From sequence record NC_100372.1: a stretch of 64,000 bases of DNA; one strand, given 5' to 3'. The first letter of the stretch is position 1, and each line of letters opens with the position of its first letter. The notes under the pieces are model-generated. The model did not search any database. It was not told the DNA's origin and saw nothing but the letters and a program-made list of their open reading frames with translations. Below are positions 5,401 through 38,604 of the stretch, one piece after another. A program made the translations under genes and the position numbers. The stretch comes from a phage.

Positions 5401-6283
5401 CTCTGGCCCCTGTACCGCCCTGCTCTATAGCAAGAGGTTGCCACGAGGCTGTTTGTTGGTTCCACATACCCCAACGGCCTGTTGCATCAAGCTGCAAGTA
5501 CCCTGCCGTGTTTAAATCATCTCCGGCACGGATAACTGTTCTTGTTGGGTTGTTTGCCTCCAGGCGTTTAAATTCGTCACGAAGTGCTATTCTTTTTGTT
5601 GTTGCTACACCGTTGGCTACTGCAATGGTATACATGGCTCCGGAGGTAGCGCCACGGAAAATGCCATCAACAGTTGTAGTATCACGACGAGATACCACAC
5701 CGTTCAGAAATTTTTCACCCGCCGCTTCAGAAGGGTAGTTAGTAGTTCTTCCCTCTTCAATAACTGCAGGACCAACAAAGTTGACAAGGTGAATAACATC
5801 GCCTACAGTATGCACTGTGCCAAAATCTACCCGCTGTGCAAGTGCTTTAGCATCGTTGGCTGTCTGAACAGTAACATCCATTACATCCTGGACAGACTGC
5901 CCTTCGGCTGTCATGATCATAGATGCGCCAATGGTAGACTCCAGCTCCTCCCTTAAGGACGGATCTGTATATACCATCCACGCAGCGTCAGTAATCCCAC
6001 CGTCAGAATATGGTGAAGACAGTGCAGGGACAGTGTGTGGAAATTCGCCTTTCCAACGCAGGTATAGATCTTCCTCTTCGAAGTAGGCAAAATCCATTGG
6101 GCCGTTTAACTTACCACCTTCCTTAAAGGAGATTACATGAGAAACAGTCCCATCCACATGGACAACATCGCCAATTTTCACACGACGGGTCAGGTCTGGT
6201 TGTTGAACAACCAGGTAATCATCCTCTGTCACTGCGGTAGTGGCAGGAAGAGATTCAATTCTGACAACTTTAATATCAGCCAT
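2474..6283 (-). CDS. long tail fibre protein with C-terminal intramolecular chaperone (peptidase S74-like) domain
   Basis: 1269 aa; C-terminus DRDLKDNIEVIPNALEAIRKMKGYTYTLKENGMPHAGVIAQEVMEALPEAVG matches the auto-cleaving chaperone domain of endosialidase and T5 L-shaped-fibre type proteins; Gly/Thr/Asn-rich repetitive body; N-terminus paralogous to ORF 8918..9586. Confidence 0.8.
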   Translation of the reverse strand: MADIKVVRIESLPATTAVTEDDYLVVQQPDLTRRVKIGDVVHVDGTVSHVISFKEGGKLNGPMDFAYFEEEDLYLRWKGEFPHTVPALSSPYSDGGITDAAWMVYTDPSLREELESTIGASMIMTAEGQSVQDVMDVTVQTANDAKALAQRVDFGTVHTVGDVIHLVNFVGPAVIEEGRTTNYPSEAAGEKFLNGVVSRRDTTTVDGIFRGATSGAMYTIAVANGVATTKRIALRDEFKRLEANNPTRTVIRAGDDLNTAGYLQLDATGRWGMWNQQTASWQPLAIEQGGTGARDAAGARINLGAFYKQRAALESNFNINNLTGNQDGIYYQPMTAYATEANGYPAGSGAGHLIVWQNNANGGTGCRQEYYPFSNVDVWYLRTYQANTNQWTAWQPMVRPRNDETFRSHIGLGSRNSPTFGHLYLSQSSADVKSASGIVNGDKYSADGVLEHGYRIYSEVRNDNKAWLTIHLHKGAKGSETHRYLGFREDGVLDCPKYMQVGDLNGQLANWGLGEWIRSSRAERGFWGSKKAAKMVIWDGGMDEQGEGTLEWGVYNNRKAKWEPLPIACGGTSARTVGDAQAQFRIPLAAGARPYVNLPRTAAMQDGKYYPIIVRTDPNFAATIGTDLTIVTRSSSGGDPMNCATLQCHYRTGGWTDRGDSFQGVINFYQNERAILGCVSPTRGKQEYVAFYVEARAFPVTVYAGATVIEVSTREADWQVGNVTGNQDGVKFCAPLESADLSLAIKGDDVTNTRPLVEFKGTSGFYTGGGTMWHYLGTPERYAVMSKTNMPKVELWADGLDYLCYGSPRKALFSNAGFQCASDGTEDLTNGTFTSKCGNGAGLQGQAEFRSTPEAGQVIVRDVVGSAHRFYNFNKDGTFSAPGGFVCHTGGDWNNQFGPNNPSKIMAGNVNGPEGSMVVGGLSVAFSGNYAFQMAGRLDQLYTRSIEGGNHRAWNKVIQHRGQGLGTEDLNAYDGSREGFYHQGSNADALVIDRHYPAPYAGTLLVYKNTANRPQGCVQEYITYFGDRYTRAGNYVGDVFTWEEWRHDAGKGIQLRPNYTFGETSNQLEIHVGANSLSSNADNLPANSGRMYYWGNGADRKNVLEFQINDNSSSASWVFHCGARADEAKSRYFAVNGVVECTTVSQSSDRDLKDNIEVIPNALEAIRKMKGYTYTLKENGMPHAGVIAQEVMEALPEAVGSFVKRKEVPGSTQDGIPLMTEERFYNVDYAAVTGLLVQVCREQDDKITSLEEQVKKLTEVVTGLQEKLK

Positions 6284-6318
6284 TCTTTCTCCTGAAAGGG
6301 GGCAAACAGCCCCCTATG

Positions 6319-8916
6319 TTAAAGGTACAATCCACGGTATTGAGCATAAAGGCCAAGACCGCGAAGGATTTCGCCAGAGTGATAGCCTACCGGATCAGAA
6401 ACTGCCCAGCAGCCATTTAAAACATTATCCCCATTAATAAAGTGGTGCTTTTGCAGTAGCTTCATACAGGCTTCTACAACAATATCTATTTGAGGTATTG
6501 TTTCTGAATACCCGCACAGACCTAGCCAGCAGCAACCTGCAAGCCATTCACCTACCACCCACATCCTATCTCCTCTATCTTGATAAGAGTATCCACCAGA
6601 GGTGTTAAAGTCTGTAGGCAAATTTCCTGAATGGGATGACTGGAATCTGTTGAGGAACCATGCCCATTTCTGGCAGAACAGGAACAGTCTTTCATCAACA
6701 GGCTCTTTATGTTTCTTGAGCTCATATATTGTGCGGCACGCAGCAACAAAAGATCTTGACTGGAGCTTAGAGTTATCTACCATCTCCCACCAACCAGTCA
6801 ACCCTTCATTACCTCTTTGCCATACATAACGTGAGGCAACTGGACCCTCTGTCTTAAATGTATTGTTATACCAGACTTGAGAGTCATACAGAAAGCCTAT
6901 TGTATTTGACAATCTATGGCGGTCTATGTTTTCTGCACCCATGCAGTAGACTGCTGGGTATTGCATACCAGGACAGGGCCAACTTGGCCTTTCCTCTAAG
7001 AGATAATTTTCCTTATCTATCACCTTTCCGGCAGGGAACACACCTGGGGTGTGCCTGTAGGCACCTTGCTTGTAGTTTCTGACATAGCAATCACCAACCT
7101 TGGCGGTTGATTCTGTCTTGCTTGCCATCCATACGCTAAACCAGATTAGATAAGCATCCCTATCTGCAACATAAAATTGCGGCAGTGTGTTGACGCAATA
7201 CAGATCGAACAAGCCATTACCTATCTGCCTGTCGCTCAGACTGAAATCTACAGAGGTAATTCCTTTAGGGTTAGCAAAGAAAGGTTTAATCTCATCTTCT
7301 GTGTGATGAGGTTGTGTTGGGTCTAGTTTAAAATCACCTAGGGTAAGAGTTTCTGTTACCCATTGCCCGTTAGTGGCATATAGATCAGCATACCATAACC
7401 AACGGTCTTTGTCAAGAAATTTGACCCTTACCATCTCATCATCTGATCGATAAGTCACTGAGTTTAAAGAAATCTCTCTTCCAAAATTGAAAGTTACTTT
7501 GCCTCTTACTATATTGCAACGGGTGAAGTTGTCGGAGTGGTTGTAAATGTCGGTACCATACTGCATACTGACACTCGCGCCACCGCTTACGGTAATGTTT
7601 TCCTCTTTTGGCAAGAGATACGGGTTACCGTCTTTACCAACCACCTCCACGAAATCGGTGACCTTGGCAACTGTCTCTGTTACCTCTGCCCCTCCAAAAG
7701 GGACCCCTATCCTATACTGTTTTTTGTTATTGTTGCCATCATTAAGGATGAAATGTGGCTGGAACAGGACCCCTTCTCCTCCAAAATTCATAACAATTTC
7801 GGCATCTCTGCCTATTTTGTATGTAGTCCCTTTTTGGATTATTTCGCAAGGCTGGCGTGCGTTCATTCTAAAATTGATATATCCGTCACTATCCCTACTC
7901 ATGACAGGTACTGTTCCTGCAACTAGACAAGCGCCATCTGTGAACGGGGCCTTAATCAACGTGGTCTTTCTGAACAGCTTGTCGTAGGCATTTATATCAC
8001 TAAAATTAAGCAACTTATTGTAAGACTGCTTAAACGCGGTGTAATACTTTTCCTCACCTGTCAGGGTGTAGAGTTGATAACAAGCGTCACACCACATCTC
8101 TTCCCCATCTAACTCTGGGGCTTGATTGTCTGCAACCACGTTTATAGGATTTACAATTACAGGGGATCCAGCAGGTATCACCGATCCGCCCTGCTCTTGA
8201 GGCAATCTCACACAATAGGTAACCTTGTGGTTGCCTGTAACACCCTTATCTTGCAGTTGGATTGTGCCGAACTCTGCAGACGTATGACCACTGTCGGCTA
8301 TGCTACCGTTGGCCCAATAGCGGTTACCATCCCATGCTATATACCACTCAACCCACCAACTTAATCCGGAAGTTGTCCAATTAGGATTAGCATCTGTGCC
8401 GCCGTAAACATCAGAGTCTACAGTGTTTCTTCCTAAAACACCGTTATACGCCTGAAAAGCCTTGTCCAAGTATTCTCCCCATGTCGGGGATCCTGCTGGG
8501 ATTTTTCCTCTACCTTTGTTAAAAGACACAACCACATCTTTAAACCCACCATGTGATGGAACTCCATCTGTGGATAACGGGTAGTGGGACAATCTTTGCA
8601 TTTTACTTTCTACTGCATATACTCCCAGAAGATGACTGTTGTAGGCTTCCCAAGCCTCTTTGGCCCTGTCCAGATAAAAATCGCTTTTTGATGCCCTGTA
8701 TGCCTCAATGTATCCCAGAATCAACACAGCTTGGGACTCATGCATTGCCCAATCATTATTTATCTTACTTCCTGACCAACCTGACGCTATAAGTCCATCC
8801 TGGTTTACCAGTTTGTTCTGTGTAGGGAGATTGGTAATACCTGTGTTGTTATCGAGGCACTTCCTGTGCCCCTCGATCATCTGAAATACGTTATCAATGT
8901 TGTGTTGAATACGCAT
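6319..8916 (-). CDS. putative tailspike / enzymatic receptor-binding protein (possible depolymerase)
   Basis: 865 aa, Trp/Tyr-rich, enzyme-like N-terminal region (GWSGSKINNDWAMHESQAVLILGYIEAYRASKSDFYLDRAKEAWEAY); sits between the short fibre/adaptor and the long fibre. Confidence 0.4.
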   Translation of the reverse strand: MRIQHNIDNVFQMIEGHRKCLDNNTGITNLPTQNKLVNQDGLIASGWSGSKINNDWAMHESQAVLILGYIEAYRASKSDFYLDRAKEAWEAYNSHLLGVYAVESKMQRLSHYPLSTDGVPSHGGFKDVVVSFNKGRGKIPAGSPTWGEYLDKAFQAYNGVLGRNTVDSDVYGGTDANPNWTTSGLSWWVEWYIAWDGNRYWANGSIADSGHTSAEFGTIQLQDKGVTGNHKVTYCVRLPQEQGGSVIPAGSPVIVNPINVVADNQAPELDGEEMWCDACYQLYTLTGEEKYYTAFKQSYNKLLNFSDINAYDKLFRKTTLIKAPFTDGACLVAGTVPVMSRDSDGYINFRMNARQPCEIIQKGTTYKIGRDAEIVMNFGGEGVLFQPHFILNDGNNNKKQYRIGVPFGGAEVTETVAKVTDFVEVVGKDGNPYLLPKEENITVSGGASVSMQYGTDIYNHSDNFTRCNIVRGKVTFNFGREISLNSVTYRSDDEMVRVKFLDKDRWLWYADLYATNGQWVTETLTLGDFKLDPTQPHHTEDEIKPFFANPKGITSVDFSLSDRQIGNGLFDLYCVNTLPQFYVADRDAYLIWFSVWMASKTESTAKVGDCYVRNYKQGAYRHTPGVFPAGKVIDKENYLLEERPSWPCPGMQYPAVYCMGAENIDRHRLSNTIGFLYDSQVWYNNTFKTEGPVASRYVWQRGNEGLTGWWEMVDNSKLQSRSFVAACRTIYELKKHKEPVDERLFLFCQKWAWFLNRFQSSHSGNLPTDFNTSGGYSYQDRGDRMWVVGEWLAGCCWLGLCGYSETIPQIDIVVEACMKLLQKHHFINGDNVLNGCWAVSDPVGYHSGEILRGLGLYAQYRGLYL

Positions 8917-8917
8917 C

Positions 8918-9586
8918 TTAGATAGCTCCTGCGATGATCAGTGCCCCGTACCAAGTTAGTCCATTATCATATGTTTCCAACTTGAAAATGTCTGTTGCAC
9001 CAGCTGTAAATGTTAGGATAGGATCTCTTCCGTAGGCCCATTTAACATTGTCAGGCCAATAAACTTTGTTACCACCAGAGGTCTGCGTTATGCATACAGT
9101 TATAGTTCTTGCCACTCCGTCGAGCCCTTCTGTTTGATTTTCAAAAGAGATTGTGGTGTTTGAAGTGAGCCGAACTTTAAACGTGTCTGCAACGTCAAGA
9201 TCCATGTCAAGTTGACCACCAATAGAGCCGTAATCAACTATCCTACCTGAAGAAGTTGCAGCAAGCTCTCCAAAAACAGACCATGCTTTTGCAGACACAC
9301 CTCCGGCACCCTCTACAGTGGAATCTGGGAGGATTATTTTAGGATAATCTCCATTCCATGTGTAGTAGCGCTTAGTTTCCGGATCATAAGCAAAATCCTT
9401 CTTGCTCTTAAGATAACCGCCCTCTGTGAAATAAACTATTTTAGTAATGCTAAGATCATTGACAACATCATCAATCTTAGCCTTTCTTGTCCCGTCAGTC
9501 TGGTTGACAACCAAGAAGTCATCACTCAAGACTGTTTCTGCATCTTCAAGATCTGGGATTGGTATTGTAGGATAAGCTACAGCCAT
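8918..9586 (-). CDS. short tail fibre / adaptor protein sharing the N-terminal anchor domain of the long fibre
   Basis: 222 aa; N-terminus (IPDLEDAETVLSDDFLVVNQTDGTRKAKIDDVVND...FTEGGYLKSKKDFAYDPE) aligns by eye with the long-fibre N-terminus (LPATTAVTEDDYLVVQQPDLTRRVKIGDVVHVD...FKEGGKLNGPMDFAYFEE). Confidence 0.5.
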   Translation of the reverse strand: MAVAYPTIPIPDLEDAETVLSDDFLVVNQTDGTRKAKIDDVVNDLSITKIVYFTEGGYLKSKKDFAYDPETKRYYTWNGDYPKIILPDSTVEGAGGVSAKAWSVFGELAATSSGRIVDYGSIGGQLDMDLDVADTFKVRLTSNTTISFENQTEGLDGVARTITVCITQTSGGNKVYWPDNVKWAYGRDPILTFTAGATDIFKLETYDNGLTWYGALIIAGAI

Positions 9587-13382: not shown

Positions 13383-15719
13383 TTACCAAAGATCTGTTGA
13401 CATAAAGTTAATATCTTTGTTGTTCTCCCACTCAAGTTTTGCATCAATTATTTTGTTAAACTCGCCCTCATTTATTGAAATAGTGATTTTCCCATCACTG
13501 ATCTCTAAAGGTAGCATTTCCATAGTTCTTAATTGAGAAGCAAAACCAGGGCCACCTGGCAACGGAAGAGTACCGCCAGGTAAGGTGTCCAAAGGATCAA
13601 CAAACCCGTTACCTCCGGATATAATATCTTTGCGAATCATATCGCTGATAGTATCCAGTTGCTGATTTCTTTCACTCAGCGGGTTGAAACGGTCATTAAA
13701 TAACTCTCCGGCACTTAATATTGTGCCGATAATGCCCAGCTTGCCAAGTATGCCAACTTTACCACCAGGTGTCTTGAGGCCACCTCCACCTTTTCCTGCT
13801 GCGCCTCCACCACCAGATCCTTCTGCAGTGGCTGCACCTGCTGCTCCAGCTGCACCTCTTAGAGAACTAAGGAATTTAAAGGTTTTTACAAGCATGGATG
13901 CCATGACAAAACCTTTTGTCAGGGCGTTGACGACCAGCATGATGGCAGCAGCAAACCCTGCCCATTTAGCATAGCTAAAGGTGTCATGAAGCTCTTCAGA
14001 ATATTCCTTCGTCTTAGCTGTTATGAATCCCCATTTAATCCCCCATTCAAGGAAAAACATGCGGATCTTGACTATAGTGTTGTTCAGTTCACCAACTACC
14101 CAGTTAAGACCTCTCACAAACCCGCTAACAAAATCACCAGAGGCATCCCACACAAATTGCAAAGTCTCACCAGTGCGGATCAGTGTATAATAGAACTCTG
14201 TTAGTTCGTCAGCCCAACGGGTGAACAGTTTCTGACGGGACAGTTCGATGAAGGTTTTCAGTCTGTTTTCTGCCAGCACGTTAGACTTCTGCATTCTCTC
14301 ATAACCAGCTGCAGATGCCTCGTTCATGTACTTAGCCACATACTTCATGATCTTGGCTGTTTTAACCTCACCTTTCTTCATCATGTCCATGAACTGATCC
14401 ATGGAGAGTTCAGAAAGACCAAAAGCCTCTTTGGTGGCCTTGATGAAAGGTTCATATGCCCCAGGTAACGCCTCAGCAAGCTGTTGCTTAAGTTCTTCTG
14501 ACATTACCTGTCCTTTACCAAGCATTTGCTGGATTGCCATAATACCGCGCTGGTATTTTACCTCATCAGCACCATAAGCAGCAGCATATTGAGAGTATGC
14601 AGAGAATAGCTCATGTACCTCTTGGTTTGTCATCTGATTTTTGGCGTTCACCGCCATCTGAGAATAACCCTGAAGACCAGATTTGAGATCAAAACCAAGA
14701 CGCATAGCCTCCTGCTGGACAAACGCAACTTCACTGTTGGCTTTGTTTGGATCTCCAGTAACAGCAGTAAGAGCAGCACTTGCCCCCTCCATCATGTGAC
14801 CGGATCTGTTCACCGCAGCAAATCCAGAAAAAGCTGTATACGCAGCTGTTGCATTAATAACAGATCTACGTAAGTCTCTCAAGGCATCGCCTAGTGTAAG
14901 CGTTTGGCTGGTGGCGCTTTTAAACCCAGACTGCAGAGCTGACAGGTGGGCGTTAAAGGTTGACTTTTTCATCTCTCCGCGAGCAAACCTGGACTCTAAC
15001 TCGGAGTATCCTGGCAAGCTTCCACGGAATCCGGCTCCATACTTGGCAGAAAGTCTTATCGCAGAGTTGTATAGGTGGGTTCTCCTTGCCTCACGATCCG
15101 ACATAAGCCTATTATCCATACCAGCTTTACTGTCCCTTCTTAGCTGCCTATGGTAACGGTTCATAGCCGCTGTCTGAGCTTTCACAAGATTAGGGTCGGA
15201 AGCCACACCACCCATGTTAGGGTTACCGGGGATATATTTGAAAGATTTGGCATTAGCCAAAACTCTTGCCTTAGGTGCCTTATACCCGCCGTAAGACACT
15301 GGTGCAGATTTGGCAGCCTTTTTGGCCTCTTTAGCTTGCTGCTGGTAGAACTTACGCATCCTTGCCATTTCTGGATTTTTAGCAGTAAGATTACCTACAG
15401 CTTGTTTACGTCTCGCGTTCTCCCTACGTTCTATTGCAGCCCTTACTGCAGCCTCTTTCTTGGCTTGTGCTACGCTCTCCCTGTGCAGTTTAGCATTTGC
15501 CTGAGATTGCTGCCTGGCAACCCGCTGCATTGTTTGCTGGGTTTTAACAGCCACTGCCTGCCATCTACTCATTGGGTTGGCTGAGTTAAAATCCTCGCCC
15601 AGTTTCCTGAACTCCCTCCCAATACTGCGAATTTTCTCTACAGCTTTTTTGTAGGAGGAGTTCTCTATCTCAAAGCCAATCTTGTTGACTGTTGTGGCAA
15701 CTATTTTGTTTGTAGCCAT
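13383..15719 (-). CDS. tail tape measure protein
   Basis: 778 aa, Ala/Gln/Lys-rich helical sequence with internal Gly-rich tract (AAGAAGAATAEGSGGGGAAGKGGGGLKTPGG); follows putative tail chaperone genes. Confidence 0.7.
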   Translation of the reverse strand: MATNKIVATTVNKIGFEIENSSYKKAVEKIRSIGREFRKLGEDFNSANPMSRWQAVAVKTQQTMQRVARQQSQANAKLHRESVAQAKKEAAVRAAIERRENARRKQAVGNLTAKNPEMARMRKFYQQQAKEAKKAAKSAPVSYGGYKAPKARVLANAKSFKYIPGNPNMGGVASDPNLVKAQTAAMNRYHRQLRRDSKAGMDNRLMSDREARRTHLYNSAIRLSAKYGAGFRGSLPGYSELESRFARGEMKKSTFNAHLSALQSGFKSATSQTLTLGDALRDLRRSVINATAAYTAFSGFAAVNRSGHMMEGASAALTAVTGDPNKANSEVAFVQQEAMRLGFDLKSGLQGYSQMAVNAKNQMTNQEVHELFSAYSQYAAAYGADEVKYQRGIMAIQQMLGKGQVMSEELKQQLAEALPGAYEPFIKATKEAFGLSELSMDQFMDMMKKGEVKTAKIMKYVAKYMNEASAAGYERMQKSNVLAENRLKTFIELSRQKLFTRWADELTEFYYTLIRTGETLQFVWDASGDFVSGFVRGLNWVVGELNNTIVKIRMFFLEWGIKWGFITAKTKEYSEELHDTFSYAKWAGFAAAIMLVVNALTKGFVMASMLVKTFKFLSSLRGAAGAAGAATAEGSGGGGAAGKGGGGLKTPGGKVGILGKLGIIGTILSAGELFNDRFNPLSERNQQLDTISDMIRKDIISGGNGFVDPLDTLPGGTLPLPGGPGFASQLRTMEMLPLEISDGKITISINEGEFNKIIDAKLEWENNKDINFMSTDLW

Positions 15720-28965: not shown

Positions 28966-29042
28966 TGGTCTCCACGGAGTGATTCGAACACTCGACCTCC
29001 TGATCCCAAATCAGGCGCTCTACCAAGCTGAGCTACGCGGAG
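28966..29042 (-). tRNA. tRNA-Pro (anticodon TGG), CCA encoded
   Basis: Manual fold: acceptor CTCCGCG/CGTGGAG (one G-T), D arm GCTC/GAGC, anticodon stem CCTGA/TCAGG with loop TTTGGGA, T arm GAGTG-TTCGAAT-CACTC, 3' ACCA. Confidence 0.75.
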
Positions 29043-29053
29043 TATTTATTATT

Positions 29054-29128
29054 TGGTGGCCCTGGGTGGAATTGAACCACCGTCTGGCGATTATGAGTCG
29101 CTTGCTTGAACCTTCCAGCTACAGGGCC
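29054..29128 (-). tRNA. tRNA-Met (anticodon CAT; initiator, elongator or Ile2-type undetermined), CCA encoded
   Basis: Manual fold: acceptor GGCCCTG/CAGGGCC, anticodon loop CTCATAA, T loop TTCAATT, 3' ACCA. Confidence 0.7.
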
Positions 29129-29129
29129 A

Positions 29130-29205
29130 TGGTGCTGATGGCAGGACTTGAACCTGCAACCTATTGATTACAAATCAATTGCACTGCCAATTGTGCTACA
29201 TCAGC
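29130..29205 (-). tRNA. tRNA-Thr (anticodon TGT), CCA encoded
   Basis: Manual fold: acceptor GCTGATG/CATCAGC, anticodon stem ATTGA/TCAAT with loop TTTGTAA, T arm GCAGG-TTCAAGT-CCTGC; 1 nt after tRNA-Met. Confidence 0.75.
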
Positions 29206-29211
29206 AAAAGG

Positions 29212-29308
29212 TGCTAGGTGATGGAATCGAACCACCTATGTATTCAACGACTACCTCGTCTATTTTCAGGATTAAAAATCCTCGCCCTTGCCAAAGGGCT
29301 TACCTAGC
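29212..29308 (-). ncRNA. atypical 97-nt tRNA-like element (possible Lys-UUU-type anticodon loop; not a canonical fold)
   Basis: Perfect 7-bp acceptor GCTAGGT/ACCTAGC, D arm GCCC-TTTGGCAA-GGGC, T arm GGTGG-TTCGATT-CCATC, but the central region is two short hairpins (AGGATTTTTAATCCT and GACGAGGTAGTCGTT), about 31 nt between anticodon-like hairpin and T stem; A at position 8; 3' end ACCT not CCA. Confidence 0.4.
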
Positions 29309-29406
29309 GCAATATGTTGACCATGTGGCTAGTCGGCGATGACGACTGTAACATTTGATAATCCGGTTCTGCTTCCGGCTTTCGCTTAATTACAAGGTCA
29401 ACAATG

Positions 29407-29497
29407 TGGCGGAGAGTAATGGAATCGAACCATCATCGAGTCATCCTCAACGGGACGGTTTTCAAGACCGCTTGAGCACCATTGCTCCCTACCCTCC
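29407..29497 (-). tRNA. tRNA-Ser (anticodon TGA), type II with long variable arm, CCA encoded
   Basis: Manual fold: acceptor GGAGGGT/ACTCTCC (one G-T), anticodon stem GCGGT/ACCGT with loop CTTGAAA, variable arm about 17 nt, T arm GATGG-TTCGATT-CCATT, 3' GCCA. Confidence 0.7.
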
Positions 29498-29611
29498 TTT
29501 ATAAATTACACTGATAATGACACTGATTTTCGAGCAGTTAGTGACTAGTATAAACGACGATAAATATCAATGTCATTATCTGTATGATTTATGCATTTAA
29601 AAATATAAATT

Positions 29612-29698
29612 TGGTGGGGAGTGGTGGAGTCGAACCACCCGAGTCGCAATGACAATAGATTTACAGTCTACACCGCTACCTCTACGGGATAACTCCCC
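29612..29698 (-). tRNA. tRNA-Tyr (anticodon GTA), long variable arm, CCA encoded
   Basis: Manual fold: acceptor GGGGAGT/ACTCCCC, anticodon stem GTAGA/TCTAT with loop CTGTAAA, T arm GGTGG-TTCGACT-CCACC, 3' ACCA. Confidence 0.7.
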
Positions 29699-29702
29699 AA
29701 TT

Positions 29703-29777
29703 TGGCACCCCGTACTGGACTCGAACCAGTGTCAACGGCTTAGAAGGCCGCTGCTTTATCCACTAAGCTAACAGGGC
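29703..29777 (-). tRNA. tRNA-Arg (anticodon TCT), CCA encoded
   Basis: Manual fold: acceptor GCCCTGT/ACGGGGT (two G-T), D arm GCTT/AAGC, anticodon stem GCGGC/GCCGT with loop CTTCTAA, T arm ACTGG-TTCGAGT-CCAGT, 3' GCCA. Confidence 0.7.
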
Positions 29778-32714: not shown

Positions 32715-33269
32715 TTACTCCCCGCTGTCAATAGCAAGACTCATTGCAATACGGTATGCCTCTTCTAATGGTAAGAGTCTCCCCCACACATCCCAACCGA
32801 CATCAAACTGCCTGCCAAACAACTGCTGTGTGGTTCCGTGAGCATGACCGAACAGTTGGACTGATCCGTGAGGCTTTCTGTTCCACTTTGCAAACTGGTA
32901 ATGGCTCATACAGATCAAATTCTTGTTGTGGCGAAGCTCGTAATAATCTACAACCTCATGACCGAACTCTTTCATAATTCTGACAGTCGTCCTTGTGTCA
33001 TGGTTACCACGAACAAGAATAATATGTCCGTTCAACATATTTAGAACATCTGGAAGCAATTTGTTGATATTCTTATCATTAGTGCACGCAATATCCCCCA
33101 AGTGAAACACAGTGTCTGCAGGTGACACAACAGAGTTCCACTTGGTGATGATTCCCGCATTCATACTGTCAAGATTGTGATCATACTGAGATCTGTGTTT
33201 TTGACATGAGTCGAACTCCATTACCCGCTGGTGGAGAAAGTGTGTGTCGCTTGTTACAAAGTATTTCAT
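32715..33269 (-). CDS. calcineurin-like metallophosphoesterase (candidate RNA 3'-phosphatase)
   Basis: Start set at ATG 33269 with RBS GAGGAA; motifs SDTHF (DxH), GDIA (GDxx), VRGNHD (GNHD), GHAHG (GHxH). Confidence 0.7.
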   Translation of the reverse strand: MKYFVTSDTHFLHQRVMEFDSCQKHRSQYDHNLDSMNAGIITKWNSVVSPADTVFHLGDIACTNDKNINKLLPDVLNMLNGHIILVRGNHDTRTTVRIMKEFGHEVVDYYELRHNKNLICMSHYQFAKWNRKPHGSVQLFGHAHGTTQQLFGRQFDVGWDVWGRLLPLEEAYRIAMSLAIDSGE

Positions 33270-33276
33270 ACATTCC

Positions 33277-33687
33277 TCATTTAAGTTTAATGCAGTTTTT
33301 AAGCTGGCGTTCCATACGATCCACAACCCTGTCTGGAACATCATGAATGCTTTTATTACCATGGCGGTTTTCAACCACGATCACGGTATAACTATATCCA
33401 TGACTGATCGCCATGTCAATATATTCTTGCACATATTTTTCTTTTGTAAACGTATTACTTACCACGATACGGTCGTAGCCCATACGCATCATATCTTCTA
33501 CGTTATCTTTGCACCATTTTGCTGCAAGTGTTACTTTACTTGCATCCCAATTGTAATTGCCGTCATCGTCGTACCAGAACATATCGTTCTCAAAATGTGG
33601 ATACAGACCTTCTAAAGATAGCGCATTTGCCAGTGTTGATTTGCCAGACCCTGGTAGACCACGCACGATATATAGCATTTTAGACAT
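33277..33687 (-). CDS. P-loop kinase, polynucleotide 5'-kinase-like
   Basis: Start set at ATG 33687 with RBS GGAGAG; Walker A GLPGSGKST at N-terminus; 136 aa; 7 nt upstream of the phosphoesterase gene. Confidence 0.55.
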   Translation of the reverse strand: MSKMLYIVRGLPGSGKSTLANALSLEGLYPHFENDMFWYDDDGNYNWDASKVTLAAKWCKDNVEDMMRMGYDRIVVSNTFTKEKYVQEYIDMAISHGYSYTVIVVENRHGNKSIHDVPDRVVDRMERQLKNCIKLK

Positions 33688-33715
33688 AGTAACTCTCCGT
33701 TTTAATTTTAATGAT

Positions 33716-33744
33716 AGTATACCTAACTGTTTTGTTAATTTCAA
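33716..33744 (-). promoter_or_regulatory. sigma70-like promoter for kinase/phosphoesterase operon
   Basis: Minus strand TTGAAA (33744-33739), 17-nt spacer, TATACT (33721-33716); a plus-strand TTGACA at 33748-33753 suggests a divergent promoter for the ligase operon, but its -10 is weak. Confidence 0.45.
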
Positions 33745-33787
33745 GTGTTGACACCAAGTTATTTGTGTGGCAGGATAAAGGGACAAA

Positions 33788-34723
33788 ATGACAAATGAGG
33801 AATGTATAATGAAGTATTTTAATGCAGACAACCTAGTTGACAAAGGTCTTGTAACCAGCAGATATTACCCGGATCTTGGGTTAAAGATCTATAAATATGC
33901 CAGAAAAGTATTCTACAACAATTTATGGCATTTGTCTCCTCGTTTGCTGGAGTGCCGAGGCATTGTTGTCGGTAATGAAGGAAATGTTGTGGCATGGCCC
34001 TTCACAAAAGTGTTTAACTTGGGAGAAAATTCCACCAACCTGCCTGACAATAAACTTGTGACGGCGGTAGAGAAAAAGAACGGATTCCTTGGTGTGGTAT
34101 CATCTCATAAAGGTGAACTATTGTTCTCAACAACCGGGTCTCTTGATTCTCCATATTGTAACCTCGCAAAGGAAACAATCCAGGAGCAATGTGGTAATTT
34201 AGATCTTATCAAGAGGGTTATGGGCCATGAAAACATGACATTCATGTTTGAAATTTGTCACCCTTCAGATCCGCATATTGTTCAGGAAGATCATGGCGCA
34301 TATTTGATAGGTTGCAGATATAATGATTCTGGAATAATGCTACCAGAAGCAGCTTTAGATGGGATTGCCAAATACCTTGGTGCAAAACGTCCTCACACTG
34401 TGCGTGAAATTCCGTTCAGCTATGCAAAAGAATTAGCTGCAGAAACAAGAGGTGAAGGGTATATGATTCGTAAGCCTTACTACCCTTATGATCTGCAGCT
34501 GAAGATCAAGTCTCCATACTATTTGGCACGGAAGGCCGTAATGAGGGGTAAAGCTTGGAAGATTTGGGATGATGATATCTTTAAACGTGTTGACGAAGAG
34601 TTTTACGGCATGGTAAACTTCATTCGTAGAAACTACACAGAAGATGTGTGGAATTGCCTCCTGGAGCAGGAACGACGTGAGATACTTGACTGCTATTTCC
34701 ACAACGAGGACTATATGCAATGA
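33788..34723 (+). CDS. RNA ligase, Rnl2-like nucleotidyltransferase
   Basis: 311 aa; motif I EKKNGF (KxNG, cf. T4 Rnl2 KxHG), motif IV EGYMIRKP (cf. EGYVLKP), motif V LKIKS; alternative start at ATG 33809 with RBS GAGGAA. Confidence 0.6.
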   Translation: MTNEECIMKYFNADNLVDKGLVTSRYYPDLGLKIYKYARKVFYNNLWHLSPRLLECRGIVVGNEGNVVAWPFTKVFNLGENSTNLPDNKLVTAVEKKNGFLGVVSSHKGELLFSTTGSLDSPYCNLAKETIQEQCGNLDLIKRVMGHENMTFMFEICHPSDPHIVQEDHGAYLIGCRYNDSGIMLPEAALDGIAKYLGAKRPHTVREIPFSYAKELAAETRGEGYMIRKPYYPYDLQLKIKSPYYLARKAVMRGKAWKIWDDDIFKRVDEEFYGMVNFIRRNYTEDVWNCLLEQERREILDCYFHNEDYMQ

Positions 34724-35070
34724 AGAAGTTGATTGTGTGGCTGGATGACTTGAGAGATCCGTCAAATTATGGGCTCCCAGATGCTCTTTGGCTAAAGAAT
34801 TCCTCTGAGTTTATGGATTTTATTAACGATAAGGGAAAGCTCTACAGGCGCGTTTCTGAGTGGCACATGGACAACGACCTTGGAGAGGTATTTGAAGGGT
34901 ACGATTGCCTATCTATGCTGGAGGAAAAATTTGTATTTGGTAAGCCTCCTGTAGTTGACAACGTGAAGATTTTCGTGCATACTTCTAACCCATCAGCTGC
35001 TCGTAAATTCATGCTTGCTGCTGACTCGTTTAAAAAGTTTGGAATAGAGATTAAACAAAACATCTACTGA
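34720..35070 (+). CDS. hypothetical protein translationally coupled between RNA ligase and sirtuin
   Basis: 116 aa; start overlaps ligase stop (ATGA); no motif recognised. Confidence 0.4.
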   Translation: MKKLIVWLDDLRDPSNYGLPDALWLKNSSEFMDFINDKGKLYRRVSEWHMDNDLGEVFEGYDCLSMLEEKFVFGKPPVVDNVKIFVHTSNPSAARKFMLAADSFKKFGIEIKQNIY

Positions 35071-35078
35071 GGACACTT

Positions 35079-35840
35079 ATGCGACGACTGATCATTATCT
35101 CCGGTGCTGGTTTGAGCGCTGAATCTGGTATCCCAACTTTCCGATCTGGTGGCACTGCAATGTGGGAGAATTTCAGCATCGATGAGGTGTGTAACATCCA
35201 CACCTTTGCCAAGAACTATTATAAGGTTCATGACTTTTACAATGCACGGCGTGTAGCTCTGGGCAGTGTTGATCCTAACCTTGCACATCTCCGGATCGCT
35301 GAATGGTATTCCCGCTGGTCTGGTCGCGTGATCAACCTGACAACCAATGTAGATGATTTGCTGGAGCGTGCTGGTGTAAAACATGAAGATATTTTACATG
35401 TCCACGGATATTTGCCAGAAATAGTCTACGAGGATGATGAAGGGAGTAACGTCATTAAAGACATTGGATACTCTGAGGTAGATGCAAGCAAGTATACTTG
35501 GGTTAAGCCTAATGTCGTGTTCTTCGGAGAAGTAGCTCCAAAGTATACAGACATGTATGACCTGTTGACTTCTCTGACGAGCAATGATATGGTTATCCTT
35601 GTAGGGTGCTCCAACACAGTTATCAATTTTAACTGGGAGCTATTCCCTGCCTGTAATAAGGGGACCAAACTGCTGATCGTTAACAAATACGACTCACAGC
35701 ATTTAGGGGAGAATGGCATTTCACGTAGTGACATTTACCAGTATGAGGATCGCGGCATCCCAGTTTGGTTTAACGGGGCTGTTGACGCTTTCTCTGATAA
35801 AACATTCATTGACATCGTAGAAAACTTTATGGAACTGTAA
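35079..35840 (+). CDS. Sir2-family NAD-dependent deacylase / ADP-ribosyltransferase homologue lacking the zinc-binding cysteines
   Basis: 253 aa; GAGLSAESGIPTFRSGG NAD-binding motif, FYNARR, PNLAHL, TTNVDDLLERAG, catalytic HG (HVHGYL), VVFFGE, all paralleling E. coli CobB; no CxxC pairs in the expected zinc-ribbon region. Confidence 0.8.
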   Translation: MRRLIIISGAGLSAESGIPTFRSGGTAMWENFSIDEVCNIHTFAKNYYKVHDFYNARRVALGSVDPNLAHLRIAEWYSRWSGRVINLTTNVDDLLERAGVKHEDILHVHGYLPEIVYEDDEGSNVIKDIGYSEVDASKYTWVKPNVVFFGEVAPKYTDMYDLLTSLTSNDMVILVGCSNTVINFNWELFPACNKGTKLLIVNKYDSQHLGENGISRSDIYQYEDRGIPVWFNGAVDAFSDKTFIDIVENFMEL

Positions 35841-35854
35841 GCGGAGGCCTTTTA

Positions 35855-36568
35855 ATGCTGAATACTAAACTGATTGACAACTTGGAAAAACTGTCTCAGC
35901 CTGAAAACTACCTTTGGTCTGCCAACTGGGTGGAAAATTGGAACCGTGTAGCAGCTAAAGTGAAAAAATCATACACACCATTCGAACTTCAGCTGAGTTT
36001 CATTGAGGAAGAGTTCAATGAAGTTTTGGAAGAGTTGGAGAAAGGTGATGGTGGGGATCATCTCCTAAAAGAGGCCTGCGATCTTCACGTTGTCACAAGT
36101 TATGCCGCTTATCTTGTTAACGATAACCATGAAAAGTGGTCAAACCTGTTTGATAATCCGCGAGGTCTTAAGTTTAAGATCGGTGAATTTTATGATACAC
36201 TGATCGCTGCGAAAAATACCTCTAAGCAAAGAGCGTCTGCTTACCGCTTAGCAGAGTTGTCGACAGCTTTGCTGTTCCAGCTTCGCGGTGATGTGTGCGG
36301 GATGATGCGGAAGGTTCTAAAATCTAATGACAGCAAGTTTGCACGCGTCAACCATCTGCGGTATTCACACGGTGCCAGTGCAGATATGCCTGCTGAACAA
36401 CTTATCGAGTTGGAGATTAAAGATCTTGAGCGACGCTTTGATGGTCGCTATGAAGGTTTTGTTGCTAAAGAAGAATTCTACAACGGAAATAAAGTTATCA
36501 TATTCCTCGACAGTAAAGGTAAGATTATGAAGCCTTCAAGCTTCAAGGATGTAACAGAATATATTTAA
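35855..36568 (+). CDS. putative MazG-like nucleotide pyrophosphohydrolase
   Basis: 237 aa; acidic helix motif EEEFNEVLEELEKGD...LLKEACDLHVV resembles the EExxE/D metal-binding motif of MazG/HisE proteins. Confidence 0.35.
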   Translation: MLNTKLIDNLEKLSQPENYLWSANWVENWNRVAAKVKKSYTPFELQLSFIEEEFNEVLEELEKGDGGDHLLKEACDLHVVTSYAAYLVNDNHEKWSNLFDNPRGLKFKIGEFYDTLIAAKNTSKQRASAYRLAELSTALLFQLRGDVCGMMRKVLKSNDSKFARVNHLRYSHGASADMPAEQLIELEIKDLERRFDGRYEGFVAKEEFYNGNKVIIFLDSKGKIMKPSSFKDVTEYI

Positions 36569-36574
36569 TAACAT

Positions 36575-36603
36575 AGCCGGGGCGATCCCGGCTTTACTTG
36601 TTT
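36575..36603 (+). terminator. rho-independent terminator
   Basis: AGCCGGG-GCGA-TCCCGGCT hairpin followed by TTACTTGTTT. Confidence 0.45.
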
Positions 36604-36632
36604 AGGAAAGTATGCAAGTGAGGTAGAAAGTT

Positions 36633-36941
36633 ATGTACAAGCACTCCAGAGATCTTGAAAACGATGCTGTGTTTGGGGATCAGATGAAAGAATTGGTTAA
36701 ACTTATAGGTAGGATAGAGGATAAGTTTGACACTAAGATCTACATCGACAGCAAAGTATTCAACCACAAAATATGGACAAATCTGTGTGTTGGACTGCAT
36801 GGAGATAAAGATGTGGTAAATTTAGTTGTAATTAAGTTCATAGTGTGGCAGAATAAAACTATAAATTATTACGATCCGCACCTGCTTGTTTACCCGATAA
36901 AAGACCTATTAGAGAAGGAGGACTGCAATGCTGTTATTTAA
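36633..36941 (+). CDS. hypothetical protein
   Basis: 102-aa ORF. Confidence 0.35.
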   Translation: MYKHSRDLENDAVFGDQMKELVKLIGRIEDKFDTKIYIDSKVFNHKIWTNLCVGLHGDKDVVNLVVIKFIVWQNKTINYYDPHLLVYPIKDLLEKEDCNAVI

Positions 36942-37197
36942 TCTTGCTAAACCTGTAGAAGCACACCAGTTTGACGGAAGCTCTTCATCAGTATCTGATC
37001 TGCAACGGTGGATTGATACAGGTGTGTTTACACCGTCACCTGTTCGGACCAGAGATATTCTTCGCATGTGTGAGCTTGTCGAGCCGTTTGGTAACCTGGT
37101 CTTGTACCAAGGGGATTGGTTAGTTGACTTTATGGGAGACTGGTTGGTAATGAGCAAAGAAGAGATGTTTAAAATTTTTAAGGAAGAGGCTGAGTAA
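36928..37197 (+). CDS. hypothetical protein
   Basis: 89-aa ORF; stop overlaps DNA ligase start. Confidence 0.35.
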   Translation: MLLFNLAKPVEAHQFDGSSSSVSDLQRWIDTGVFTPSPVRTRDILRMCELVEPFGNLVLYQGDWLVDFMGDWLVMSKEEMFKIFKEEAE

Positions 37198-38480
37198 TGC
37201 ATCAGATCAAAACAACACTGTACGCACTGAACAAAGATGGCAGCTACCAACAGTGGAAAGTATTCACGGATGGTGATAAGGTTATTGTAGAGTTTGGCAA
37301 GCTTGATGGTAAACTGCAATACAAAGAGACGATCTGCACACCTAAGAACGTGGGTCGTGCCAATGAAACTACAGCTGAGCAACAGGCTGAGCTGGAAGCG
37401 ATCAGTAAGTGGGAAAAACAAGTCCGTCTGGGGTATGTTGAAAATATGGAAGATTGCGAGCAGGGTGTTGACCTTTTACCCATGCTGGTGCATGACTACC
37501 TGAAGCGTGGAAAGGCACTTAAATTACCTTGCTGGATCTTGCGTAAGTTAGATGGCCTTCGTCTACTGGTTGTTTTCCAAAACGGTGAGCCTAAATTTAT
37601 TTCCCGTGGTAATAAGTCCTACCCTATTCAAGGAAAGCTTCTGGAGCAACTTCGTTCTTTCCACTTCACCACCGGGATTAAACAGCTCGACGGAGAGATC
37701 TATATTCATGGTCTGCCTCTGCAGAAAATAGTGTCTCTTGCTAAACGTTGGCGCACACAGGAAGAGATTCAGGCCGAGATCGATAAAGACTACGAGGCAG
37801 ATAAAAAACGCCGTCATGCCGCAATTAAGGCAGGCTTATCAACATACAAAAACTTCAATAAGGTAGATATTCCTGTTGATGTTGAGCCTGTTCGTGATGA
37901 TTTGCGTTACGGAGGGTACTGTAGCTATGACTTAGAGTATCATATTTTCGACATCCCTAGTGACAAGGTATGGTGGGATCCGGAAACAGAATCTGGACGA
38001 TGCAAGGATCTTATGGATGCAGAAGATACCATTACCACTCTGATGCTTGACCATATCAAGGTTGTTGACGCAGAGCTTGCGTACACAGTTGATCATTGCG
38101 AAGAATCTGTTGGTGTATTCATGTCCGAAGGATATGAAGGTACTATCATGCGTAACTTCTGTGGTAAATACGAATACGGTCAGCGAACATCTGAAGCATT
38201 GAAATGGAAAAAGTTCAACGATGCTGAGGTGAAAGTTATTGACGTTGAGAAAGATAAGAATGATGAAGGTGTTCTTATCTGTGTTGACAAGGAAGGTATC
38301 GTTGTTAAAATGAAGATGAAAGGTACGCACGAGGAGCGTAGCTATGACAGGATGCAGGAAATGATCGGCAAGTTTGTCACCTTCAAATATCAAGCAAGGA
38401 CAGAAGACAACAACTACCAATTCCCTGTCGGCATCTGCGTCCGAAATGTTAACCCAGACACTTGGGAGGTTCTGGAATGA
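37197..38480 (+). CDS. ATP-dependent DNA ligase
   Basis: 427 aa; adenylation motif I KLDGLR (KxDG), motif IV-like EGYEGTIMR, motif V-like LKWKK. Confidence 0.8.
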   Translation: MHQIKTTLYALNKDGSYQQWKVFTDGDKVIVEFGKLDGKLQYKETICTPKNVGRANETTAEQQAELEAISKWEKQVRLGYVENMEDCEQGVDLLPMLVHDYLKRGKALKLPCWILRKLDGLRLLVVFQNGEPKFISRGNKSYPIQGKLLEQLRSFHFTTGIKQLDGEIYIHGLPLQKIVSLAKRWRTQEEIQAEIDKDYEADKKRRHAAIKAGLSTYKNFNKVDIPVDVEPVRDDLRYGGYCSYDLEYHIFDIPSDKVWWDPETESGRCKDLMDAEDTITTLMLDHIKVVDAELAYTVDHCEESVGVFMSEGYEGTIMRNFCGKYEYGQRTSEALKWKKFNDAEVKVIDVEKDKNDEGVLICVDKEGIVVKMKMKGTHEERSYDRMQEMIGKFVTFKYQARTEDNNYQFPVGICVRNVNPDTWEVLE

Positions 38481-38604
38481 TGTAGGAAGGTTTAGTAGGT
38501 AACGGTAGCCAATTGAATGATGGTTTTTCAATTGGCACCTGCATAACCACATTATGCAGTGTTGTTGATCGGGTTAGTTATGAGTAAATTGGAGAGTATG
38601 AAAA

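Follow-up and report, generated by a model that had tools for sequence, protein, structure and literature searches.

What substrate does a phage sirtuin serve that has lost its zinc ligands and is encoded two genes downstream of an RNA ligase? The question is raised by a 64,000-nucleotide stretch of DNA (NC_100372.1; the whole stretch is called the window below) from an Escherichia coli phage of the Vequintavirinae (rV5/FV3-type), in which a predicted four-gene unit holds, in this order, an Rnl1-type RNA ligase, a cREC (cyclic-phosphate-processing receiver domain) protein, the sirtuin, and a MazG-like gene. Over region 33700-36700 the identity to phage S127 BCL3 is 98.9%; each of the 120 phage records that match shows 90% or more, and 118 of them span most of the region. 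A sirtuin-centred, NAD+-utilising RNA-repair system has been described for phage V5 and Proteus phage Mydo (Iyer et al. 2022, Viruses 14:1977, section 3.7.3, PMC9503650); the neighbourhood listed for V5 comprises a T4-like tRNA ligase, cREC, sirtuin, nucleotide kinase, MazG, and, in some cases, a calcineurin-like phosphoesterase, and the sirtuin was predicted to be a KptA/Tpt1-like remover of RNA 2'-phosphates (PMC9503650). The window locus is the same system in the same phage group, with nothing substantive to set the two apart. Gene, partner family, operon, and Tpt1-like hypothesis are already in public annotation or the literature, and the possible 2'-phosphate removal that a first-pass annotation of this DNA had suggested by analogy with Tpt1 is not new, having been predicted by Iyer et al. 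(2022); its other suggestion, a modulator of host NAD-based defences, is as conjectural as the first. What keeps the locus of interest is the substrate of its sirtuin, which is very widespread and zinc-free by nature. Our answer, a tentative one that we hold to be plausible but short of probable, is that the locus would be an accessory RNA end-healing and sealing cassette with a Tpt1-like sirtuin.

The sirtuin gene (35079..35840, plus strand, 253 amino acids) and its 116-amino-acid neighbour (34720..35070, plus strand) are both open reading frames (ORFs) as the first-pass annotation had described them. The former, a zinc-less class III-like sirtuin, matched Pfam SIR2 (PF02146) with 94.3 bits (cut-off 24, E 1.1e-26), residues 9-181 aligning with positions 1-178 of the 180-position model; profile searches thus placed it among sirtuins and not in a DHS-like family, a placement that had been considered. 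With phmmer against the PDB the best sequence matches were SIRT5 and CobB (~5e-21). An AlphaFold2 (AF2) model made from 52 homologs (pLDDT, the predicted local distance difference test score, 90; predicted template modelling score, pTM, 0.89) retrieved E. coli CobB 6RXQ as the best Foldseek match (E 2.7e-18; template modelling score, TM, 0.75 by query and 0.83 by target); TM values against the CobB structures 6RXQ and 1S5P ranged from 0.75 to 0.85, and 50 of 50 among the best matches listed were sirtuins. All of the NAD-binding and catalytic motifs quoted earlier are present and were located as GAGLSAESGIPTFR (residues 9-22), FYNARR (53-58), TTNVDDLLERAG (88-99), HVHG (106-110), and VVFFGE (146-151).

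In alignment with CobB of strain MG1655, the GAGxSxxSG...FR loop, Asn90, Asp92, His109, the FGE loop, Ser178, and Asn202 are retained. Across 52 clade members no variation occurs at G9, A10, G11, S16, F21, R22, C38, Y54, R57, R58, N90, D92, H109, F149, E151, S178, or N202, and N90 and H109 are conserved in 100% of 132 representative relatives; a check for substitution of the catalytic His or Asn, which would have pointed to a pseudo-enzyme, found none, His109, Asn90, and Asp92 being invariant in the family. The sole departure from the NAD-binding and catalytic set is a Gln-to-Thr change at residue 89 (TTNVD vs TQN(I/V)D). Judged by its residues, ORF 35079-35840 is a genuine, catalytically complete Sir2-family protein. 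The class III pair Y54/R57 (Y-x-x-R) aligns to Y102/R105 of SIRT5 and to FYNARR of CobB, and C38 aligns at the position of SIRT5 Ala86 (small residue). In SIRT5 and CobB, the Tyr/Arg pair of class III sirtuins binds acidic acyl groups. The sirtuins of jumbo phages have Met or Leu in place of R57.

Fold, NAD-binding and catalytic residues, Y-x-x-R motif, and small residue at the Ala86 position are therefore shared with CobB and SIRT5; differences are the missing zinc cysteines (with the ribbon kept), the TTNVD motif, an identity of only ~25-27%, and a genomic context of RNA and phosphate-end processing in place of acyl-CoA synthetase control. All seven NCBIfam CobB models (NF040867, NF001753, and related) scored under their cut-offs (120.9 vs 243, 102.3 vs 320). 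The clade is acidic, with a median isoelectric point (pI) of 5.14 and none of 120 members above 7; the window sirtuin has pI 4.90 and a net charge of -13. A phage-clade signature reads EVCN(I)H...D(I/V)GY...KPNVVFFGE. The substrate-staple strand after GxS is VYPA in CobB and VINF in the window sirtuin; its use as a substrate discriminator was dropped, the strand being too variable across relatives. Assignment to the defence-type Sir2 NADases was likewise rejected (SIR2_2 14.2 bits vs cut-off 24.5; no PADLOC family at E <=0.01).

The only cysteines of the sirtuin are C38, C177, and C192. Residues 110-146 hold none, CobB C155, C174, C176, and C177 align to residues other than Cys, and no cysteine lies between His109 and the FGE loop in the CobB alignment, so the reported absence of CxxC...CxxC zinc cysteines was borne out. 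The first-pass annotation had expected structure prediction to give a sirtuin core without zinc module; the model has the CobB-like fold, the cysteines are gone, and the ribbon is kept, all three beta strands of the module still being predicted with high confidence (AF2). Homologs from T5-like phages, phi92, KVP40, CBB, and Sharanji lack the zinc cysteines too. When 1.84 billion representative proteins were searched with a profile, 7358 relatives were found, and Cys was counted in the 136 full-length sequences among the best 150: the zinc-module columns hold at most one Cys in 47 and at least three in 85. Zinc-type relatives typically read CxxC...IGY...CxxC...KPNVV and have the same length as the zinc-less ones. 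Since close relatives keep this same-length CxxC...CxxC module, the zinc loss, which spans the whole phage clade, is by sequence comparison a derived state in which the ligands were replaced in a preserved ribbon. It goes hand in hand with replacement by Thr of the near-universal Gln in TQN(I/V)D: residue 89 (35343-35345) is Thr in 33 of the 47 zinc-less relatives and Gln in 73 of the 85 zinc-type ones.

Zinc-free proteins of the Sir2 superfamily are known, of the SIR2_2 type and without the whole module (PMC12700824). The defence Sir2 NADases (ThsA, DSR, Sir2-HerA; SIR2_2; vertebrate FAM118) resemble the window sirtuin in belonging to that superfamily without a zinc module (PMC12700824) and differ from it in that the whole beta module is missing, whereas the window sirtuin loses only its cysteines. 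In the 2022 phage-sirtuin paper, a search of the text (PMC9503650) for 'zinc' found no mention of the loss; we regard its clade-wide extent as a modest new descriptive point.

The 116-amino-acid protein (34720..35070, +) had been described as of unknown fold, a description that no longer stands: it matched Pfam PF20274 cREC_REC with 53.3 bits (cut-off 27, E 4.5e-14), has the CheY-like receiver (flavodoxin-like) fold, and already bears the cREC name in at least one GenBank record. PF20274 is precomputed on 53 of 54 cREC homologs, the exception being a 63-amino-acid fragment. In the acidic pocket D9 and D10 are nearly invariant and D51 and D53 invariant, likewise H87, S89, N90, P91, and K96. The family was defined, and a cyclic-phosphodiesterase role predicted for it, by Iyer et al. 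(2021, PMC7824862); by definition its members occur with RNA-repair or ADP-ribose-processing genes and never with histidine kinases (PMC7824862, PMC9503650), and no histidine kinase was found in any locus examined. In phage ESCO5 (Phapecoctavirus) a cREC gene lies in a cassette of phosphoesterase, Rnl1, and kinase, ~1 kb from Rnl1 and without Sir2.

First in the operon is the gene for an Rnl1-family (T4 RnlA-like) RNA ligase (33788..34723, +, 311 amino acids; Pfam RNA_lig_T4_1 55.3 bits, cut-off 28.3; PHROG 562 7e-66), which falls under the TIGR02308 (T4 RnlA) equivalog cut-off (39 vs 242). Last is the gene for a MazG-like putative nucleotide pyrophosphohydrolase (35855..36568, +, 237 amino acids; PHROG 671 5.4e-22), in which E51, E52, E53, E56, E59, and D76, examined with the EExxE...D metal-binding motif in mind, are invariant and a C-terminal extension is conserved; Pfam gave PRA-PH at E 0.084, under the cut-off, PF01503 is precomputed on three homologs, and neither the sequence nor a 17-sequence profile matched anything in the PDB. 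The cREC start shares bases with the ligase stop (ATGA at 34720-34723), the cREC stop is separated by 8 nucleotides from the Sir2 ATG, with a GAGGA Shine-Dalgarno sequence overlapping that stop, and a gap of 14 nucleotides follows before the MazG-like gene. Seven nucleotides past the MazG-like stop, a terminator-like hairpin (AGCCGGGGCGATCCCGGCT, 36575..36603, +; 8-bp stem with 6 GC pairs) is followed by a T-rich tail; it is a pattern match from a consensus scan. Because of the tight spacing and the hairpin after the MazG-like gene, the four genes look like one transcription unit. The operon proposed by the first-pass annotation therefore holds as regards the Rnl1-type ligase, the spacing, and the hairpin, and the label 'MazG-like' for 35855-36568 is, on the sequence matches given, weakly supported. 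Of the translational coupling proposed between the sirtuin and the 116-amino-acid protein, what stands is a tight juxtaposition of 8 nucleotides; the true overlap joins the ligase and cREC genes.

Divergent from this unit, on the minus strand, lie a kinase and a metallophosphoesterase gene. The P-loop kinase (33277..33687, -, 136 amino acids, GLPGSGKST; PHROG 2071 7e-59, PHROG 505 'polynucleotide kinase' 3.4e-10) is annotated as polynucleotide kinase (PNK) in phages HMD-6 and Bas54, is linked to Rnl1 in many phages, and is a candidate polynucleotide 5'-kinase. The calcineurin-like metallophosphoesterase (32715..33269, -, 184 amino acids from the ATG at 33269; PHROG 547 'phosphoesterase' 5.4e-52) has weak NCBIfam matches to PdeM/YfcE phosphoesterases, is calcineurin-like and not HAD, is named 'phosphoesterase' in HMD-6, and is found near Sir2 in related loci too; it is a candidate for the RNA 2',3'-cyclic phosphodiesterase/phosphatase of the cassette. 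An ATP-dependent DNA ligase gene (37197..38480, +; Pfam DNA_ligase_A_M, OB_2) is a conserved neighbour, given here as context and not as a proven part; it lies directly 3' of Sir2 in Mydo-like relatives.

Matches to the sirtuin (tblastn) occur in 1012 phage records, most of which call it 'Sir2 NAD-dependent deacetylase', and cREC occurs in 356; obligate co-occurrence of the two was dropped on these counts and on the T5-like phages, which have no cREC. To these records were added 56 independent IMG/VR loci with sirtuins 43-94% identical, which were scanned with the window proteins and a cREC hidden Markov model. Thirteen of the 56 are of cassette type, with sirtuin and kinase, MazG-like gene, DNA ligase, or a subset of these on the same strand within ~7 kb; two of the 13 end early at a contig edge. 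Rnl1 was matched in 11/13, the phosphoesterase in 12/13, and cREC in 8/13, the MazG-like gene lies at most 4.2 kb from Sir2 in all 13, and the DNA ligase 0.8-2.3 kb downstream of Sir2, again in all 13. Since the proteins of these loci are only 25-63% identical and the gene order is shuffled relative to the window, the linkage is selected and not inherited synteny.

T5-like loci, T5 included, make up 28 of the 56; in these the gene for a HAD_SAK_2 'Swiss-army-knife RNA-repair' phosphatase stands 0.8-1.3 kb downstream of the sirtuin, two DUF7415 genes come after it, and neither ligase nor cREC is present. In T5-like phages, and also in SP15 (8142-9481), the gene after the sirtuin encodes this phosphatase though RefSeq says 'Sir2'; the two DUF7415 proteins that follow it are paralogous and conserved together with it. 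A DUF7415 homolog without HAD_SAK_2 is found in 3 loci, and the context is unrecognisable in 5. The remaining 7 are phi92-like, with the sirtuin after two unannotated genes and a cassette of cREC, phosphoesterase, Rnl1, kinase, and DNA ligase elsewhere in the genome. In phi92 (5792-7013) and phi92-like loci, homologs of gp041 (203 amino acids) and/or gp039 (184 amino acids), which have no Pfam match, always precede the sirtuin and could be clade-specific partners of it.

Next after the sirtuin in the jumbo phages CBB and Sharanji come a Nudt16-like Nudix protein and cREC (fused in CBB) and then PIN-PhoH; in CBB an Acb1-like 2H phosphoesterase precedes the sirtuin, and NadV and NMNAT are nearby. 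The CBB gene annotated as 'RNA ligase' (5249-5695), two genes upstream of the sirtuin, encodes a 2H phosphoesterase (Pfam Acb1, anti-CBASS, E 1e-15), and the Sir2-Nudix-cREC cluster of jumbo phages may also break down cyclic nucleotides that serve as immune signals. The clusters of Pectobacterium phage CBB, Escherichia phage Sharanji, and Serratia phage BF resemble the window in a sirtuin of the same zinc-less clade (39-43% identity) that adjoins cREC and a nucleotide pyrophosphohydrolase; they differ in having Nudix for MazG, no adjacent Rnl1, Met or Leu at R57, and, in CBB, NAD-salvage genes alongside. The unit that recurs in unrelated genomes is Sir2 with cREC and a pyrophosphohydrolase, MazG and Nudix being interchangeable, and of the four main architectures three link the sirtuin to an enzyme that processes phosphate ends. 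Pseudomonas phage K8 (3473-9148) and Vibrio phage JSF12 (4186-10885) have the Rnl1-kinase-phosphoesterase core without a sirtuin, directly beside the NAD+-salvage genes for ribose-phosphate pyrophosphokinase, Prs, and nicotinamide phosphoribosyltransferase, NadV, so that the Rnl1 module seems recurrently linked to NAD+ metabolism. Displacement of Sir2 by KptA in these two phages was considered and rejected, no annotated KptA being present there, but Prs and NadV instead.

We are confident that the purpose of the cassette is RNA repair; the RNA repaired is most likely tRNA, and the host ribonucleases countered are probably those that leave 2',3'-cyclic-phosphate and 5'-OH ends. In favour of RNA repair we count the seven nearby tRNA genes (28966-29777, 3 kb from the cassette) and the lack of a KptA homolog in the 64-kb window (tblastn with E. 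coli KptA, best E 0.57). Within that tRNA cluster, ARAGORN reports a 99-nucleotide 'tRNA-???' with a four-base anticodon (atcc) at 29210-29308 (-), which could be intron-containing, frameshift-suppressor-like, or degenerate. Tpt1 works in an established tRNA-splicing pathway with a ligase, a kinase, and a cyclic phosphodiesterase, and the partners proposed for the sirtuin are the same three, the ligase being of the Rnl1/Trl1 family.

The mechanism that we adopt as leading is the published model (Iyer et al. 2022). The kinase would put a phosphate on the 5'-OH end, and cREC and/or the phosphoesterase would open the 2',3'-cyclic phosphate. The sirtuin would then move the ADP-ribose of NAD+ onto the leftover RNA 2'-phosphate, a phosphate oxygen attacking C1' in place of an acyl carbonyl as nicotinamide leaves, and the ribose 2''-OH, activated by His109, would expel the RNA to give ADP-ribose 1'',2''-cyclic phosphate; this two-step chemistry would be that of Tpt1/KptA and formally parallel to deacylation. 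The break would be sealed by Rnl1, and the ADP-ribose cyclic-phosphate by-product would then be broken down by cREC and the MazG-like pyrophosphohydrolase. If cREC and MazG/Nudix act on a Sir2 product that bears a cyclic phosphate and a pyrophosphate, their recurrence with Sir2 is what one would expect. That the sirtuin is a functional analogue of Tpt1/KptA and the first with an RNA-phosphate acceptor, cREC and MazG/Nudix dismantling the ADP-ribose cyclic phosphate, we consider possible but doubtful. Tpt1/KptA has the ADP-ribosyltransferase fold, unlike the Rossmann-type sirtuin, and KptA of E. coli has pI 9.37 vs 4.90. We know of no sirtuin for which Tpt1-like removal of a 2'-phosphate has been demonstrated.

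Several observations weigh against a Tpt1-like sirtuin in an RNA-repair cassette. Kinase, metallophosphoesterase, and Rnl1 would suffice for healing and sealing in the manner of T4 or Clostridium, leaving no 2'-phosphate. A ~58%-identical sirtuin occurs in hundreds of T5-like phages without a Rnl1-family ligase or cREC, 14 Salmonella-phage records match the ligase vs 289 that match the sirtuin, and in phi92-like phages the sirtuin lies ~32 kb from cREC. The full lysine-deacylase residue set is kept, including the Y54/R57 acidic-acyl pocket and C38, and the clade is uniformly acidic in comparison with basic E. coli KptA. Domain fusions of the sirtuin to RNA-repair modules were not found among the 150 best representative relatives, which showed only tandem Sir2, WG-repeat, leucine-rich repeat (LRR), and unannotated extensions, a result of little weight; and the literature searched holds no experimental study of the sirtuin clade members or of cREC proteins. 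With the T4 Pnkp-Rnl1 and Clostridium thermocellum Pnkp systems the window shares the Rnl1-family ligase, a candidate P-loop 5'-kinase, a candidate end-phosphate esterase, and the proposed anti-anticodon-nuclease logic; it differs in that kinase and phosphatase are separate genes, in that the phosphatase is calcineurin-like vs HAD, and in its cREC, sirtuin, and MazG-like genes, which have no T4 counterpart.

It is also possible, although we would not call it probable, that the sirtuin is a CobB-like NAD+-dependent protein lysine deacylase acting on host or phage proteins during infection, acidic acyl groups (succinyl, malonyl) then probably being preferred. SIRT5 and E. coli CobB are nearest to it in sequence and structure, the catalytic and lysine-tunnel residues are kept together with Y54-x-x-R57 and C38, its acidic pI is like that of the CobB core, many phages have it without an RNA ligase, and over 1000 phage records in GenBank annotate it as a deacetylase. 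CobB keeps acetyl-CoA synthetase free of lysine acylation; by analogy the phage enzyme might possibly protect the flanking RNA and DNA ligases, whose adenylylatable lysines would otherwise be open to non-enzymatic acylation, and in cassette-type loci it does lie between two lysine-adenylyltransferase ligases, but this variant is pure inference and a deacylase has no known target here. On the deacylase reading, the neighbouring MazG or Nudix protein would cleave the O-acyl-ADP-ribose product. Deacylation is harder to reconcile with scores far under all NCBIfam CobB equivalog cut-offs and with the loss of the zinc cysteines, canonical sirtuins being reported to need the zinc module to act as deacetylases (PMC12700824), and it leaves the linked phosphate-processing enzymes cREC, HAD_SAK_2, and 2H without a role. 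An inactive or merely NAD-binding pseudo-enzyme, serving as scaffold or sensor, has in its favour the lost structural zinc site and the Gln-to-Thr change in TQN(I/V)D; we consider it very improbable, given that N90, D92, H109, F149-G-E151, S178, N202, and GAGxS...FR are invariant or nearly so in 52 clade members and 136 relatives, that the beta-ribbon module is confidently predicted without zinc, and that a sirtuin in more than 1000 phage genomes implies strong purifying selection.

An explanation independent of RNA ends, which we think unlikely though less so than a pseudo-enzyme, is that Sir2 works with cREC and the pyrophosphohydrolase as a NAD+/ADP-ribose module for small molecules, whose place near the RNA ligase would reflect only a shared early region of accessory genes; such a module might synthesise or degrade a NAD-derived nucleotide, for example in countering ADP-ribose-based immune signalling, or return NAD+ breakdown products to salvage. 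The jumbo-phage triad, which lacks an ATP-grasp RNA ligase and in CBB lies by NadV, NMNAT, and the Acb1-like 2H phosphoesterase, speaks for such a module, as do Nudix-cREC fusions, which point to a nucleotide-sized substrate (PMC9503650), and an acidic surface that suits a small ligand; the K8 and JSF12 ligase clusters by Prs/NadV but without Sir2 imply a link between ligase and NAD that is independent of the sirtuin. There is, however, no known pathway with a sirtuin in such a role and no PADLOC or SIR2_2 similarity; the retained His109 and acyl-lysine-type tunnel residues argue for transfer to an acceptor and not for plain NAD hydrolysis; and the ESCO5 cREC, linked to an RNA ligase without Sir2, suggests that cREC acts on RNA ends.

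Transposon mutagenesis has been reported for the Vequintavirinae phage Bas54, which agrees with the window in gene order and in gene lengths (714, 762, and 351 nucleotides). According to the 2025 preprint (doi 10.1101/2025.11.20.689424), in which E. coli K-12 was compared with uropathogenic isolates for Bas54, insertions are abundant in all six genes, those for the MazG-like protein, sirtuin, cREC, RNA ligase, PNK, and phosphoesterase. For the 50 TA sites of the sirtuin gene, mean counts were ~406 and ~443 in two conditions (log2 fold-change 0.13, q = 1). The cassette is dispensable in the laboratory, which fits a conditional counter-defence or repair function.

If the Tpt1-like prediction is true, RNA phosphate ends would be a new class of sirtuin substrate, cREC would gain the first activity of its family, phages would have a second, NAD+-consuming route for repairing tRNAs cut by host defence nucleases, and phage NAD+ salvage genes would be tied to RNA repair. 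If the enzyme is an ordinary deacylase, it would be a natural zinc-free sirtuin of canonical type in more than 1000 sequenced T5-, rV5-, phi92-, and KVP40-type phages, useful for understanding the purpose of the zinc module.

Some minor observations concern the neighbouring DNA. Between the terminator-like hairpin and the DNA ligase gene, two small overlapping ORFs (36633-37197, +; 102 and 89 amino acids) have no Pfam match, are 98-99% conserved in HMD-6, and have Bas54 counterparts that tolerate transposon insertions. HMD-6 (13935-14651) carries a HNH homing-endonuclease gene between its DNA ligase and lysozyme genes, where the window has a gap of 124 nucleotides (38481-38604) without it; mobile HNH genes typically vary between genomes in this present-or-absent manner. 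Some 18-25 GenBank records (MG0656xx, 135-146 kb) deposited as 'Campylobacter phage' exceed 90% identity to E. coli Vequintavirinae/phi92-like phages in 33700-36700, which suggests host mislabelling or contamination.

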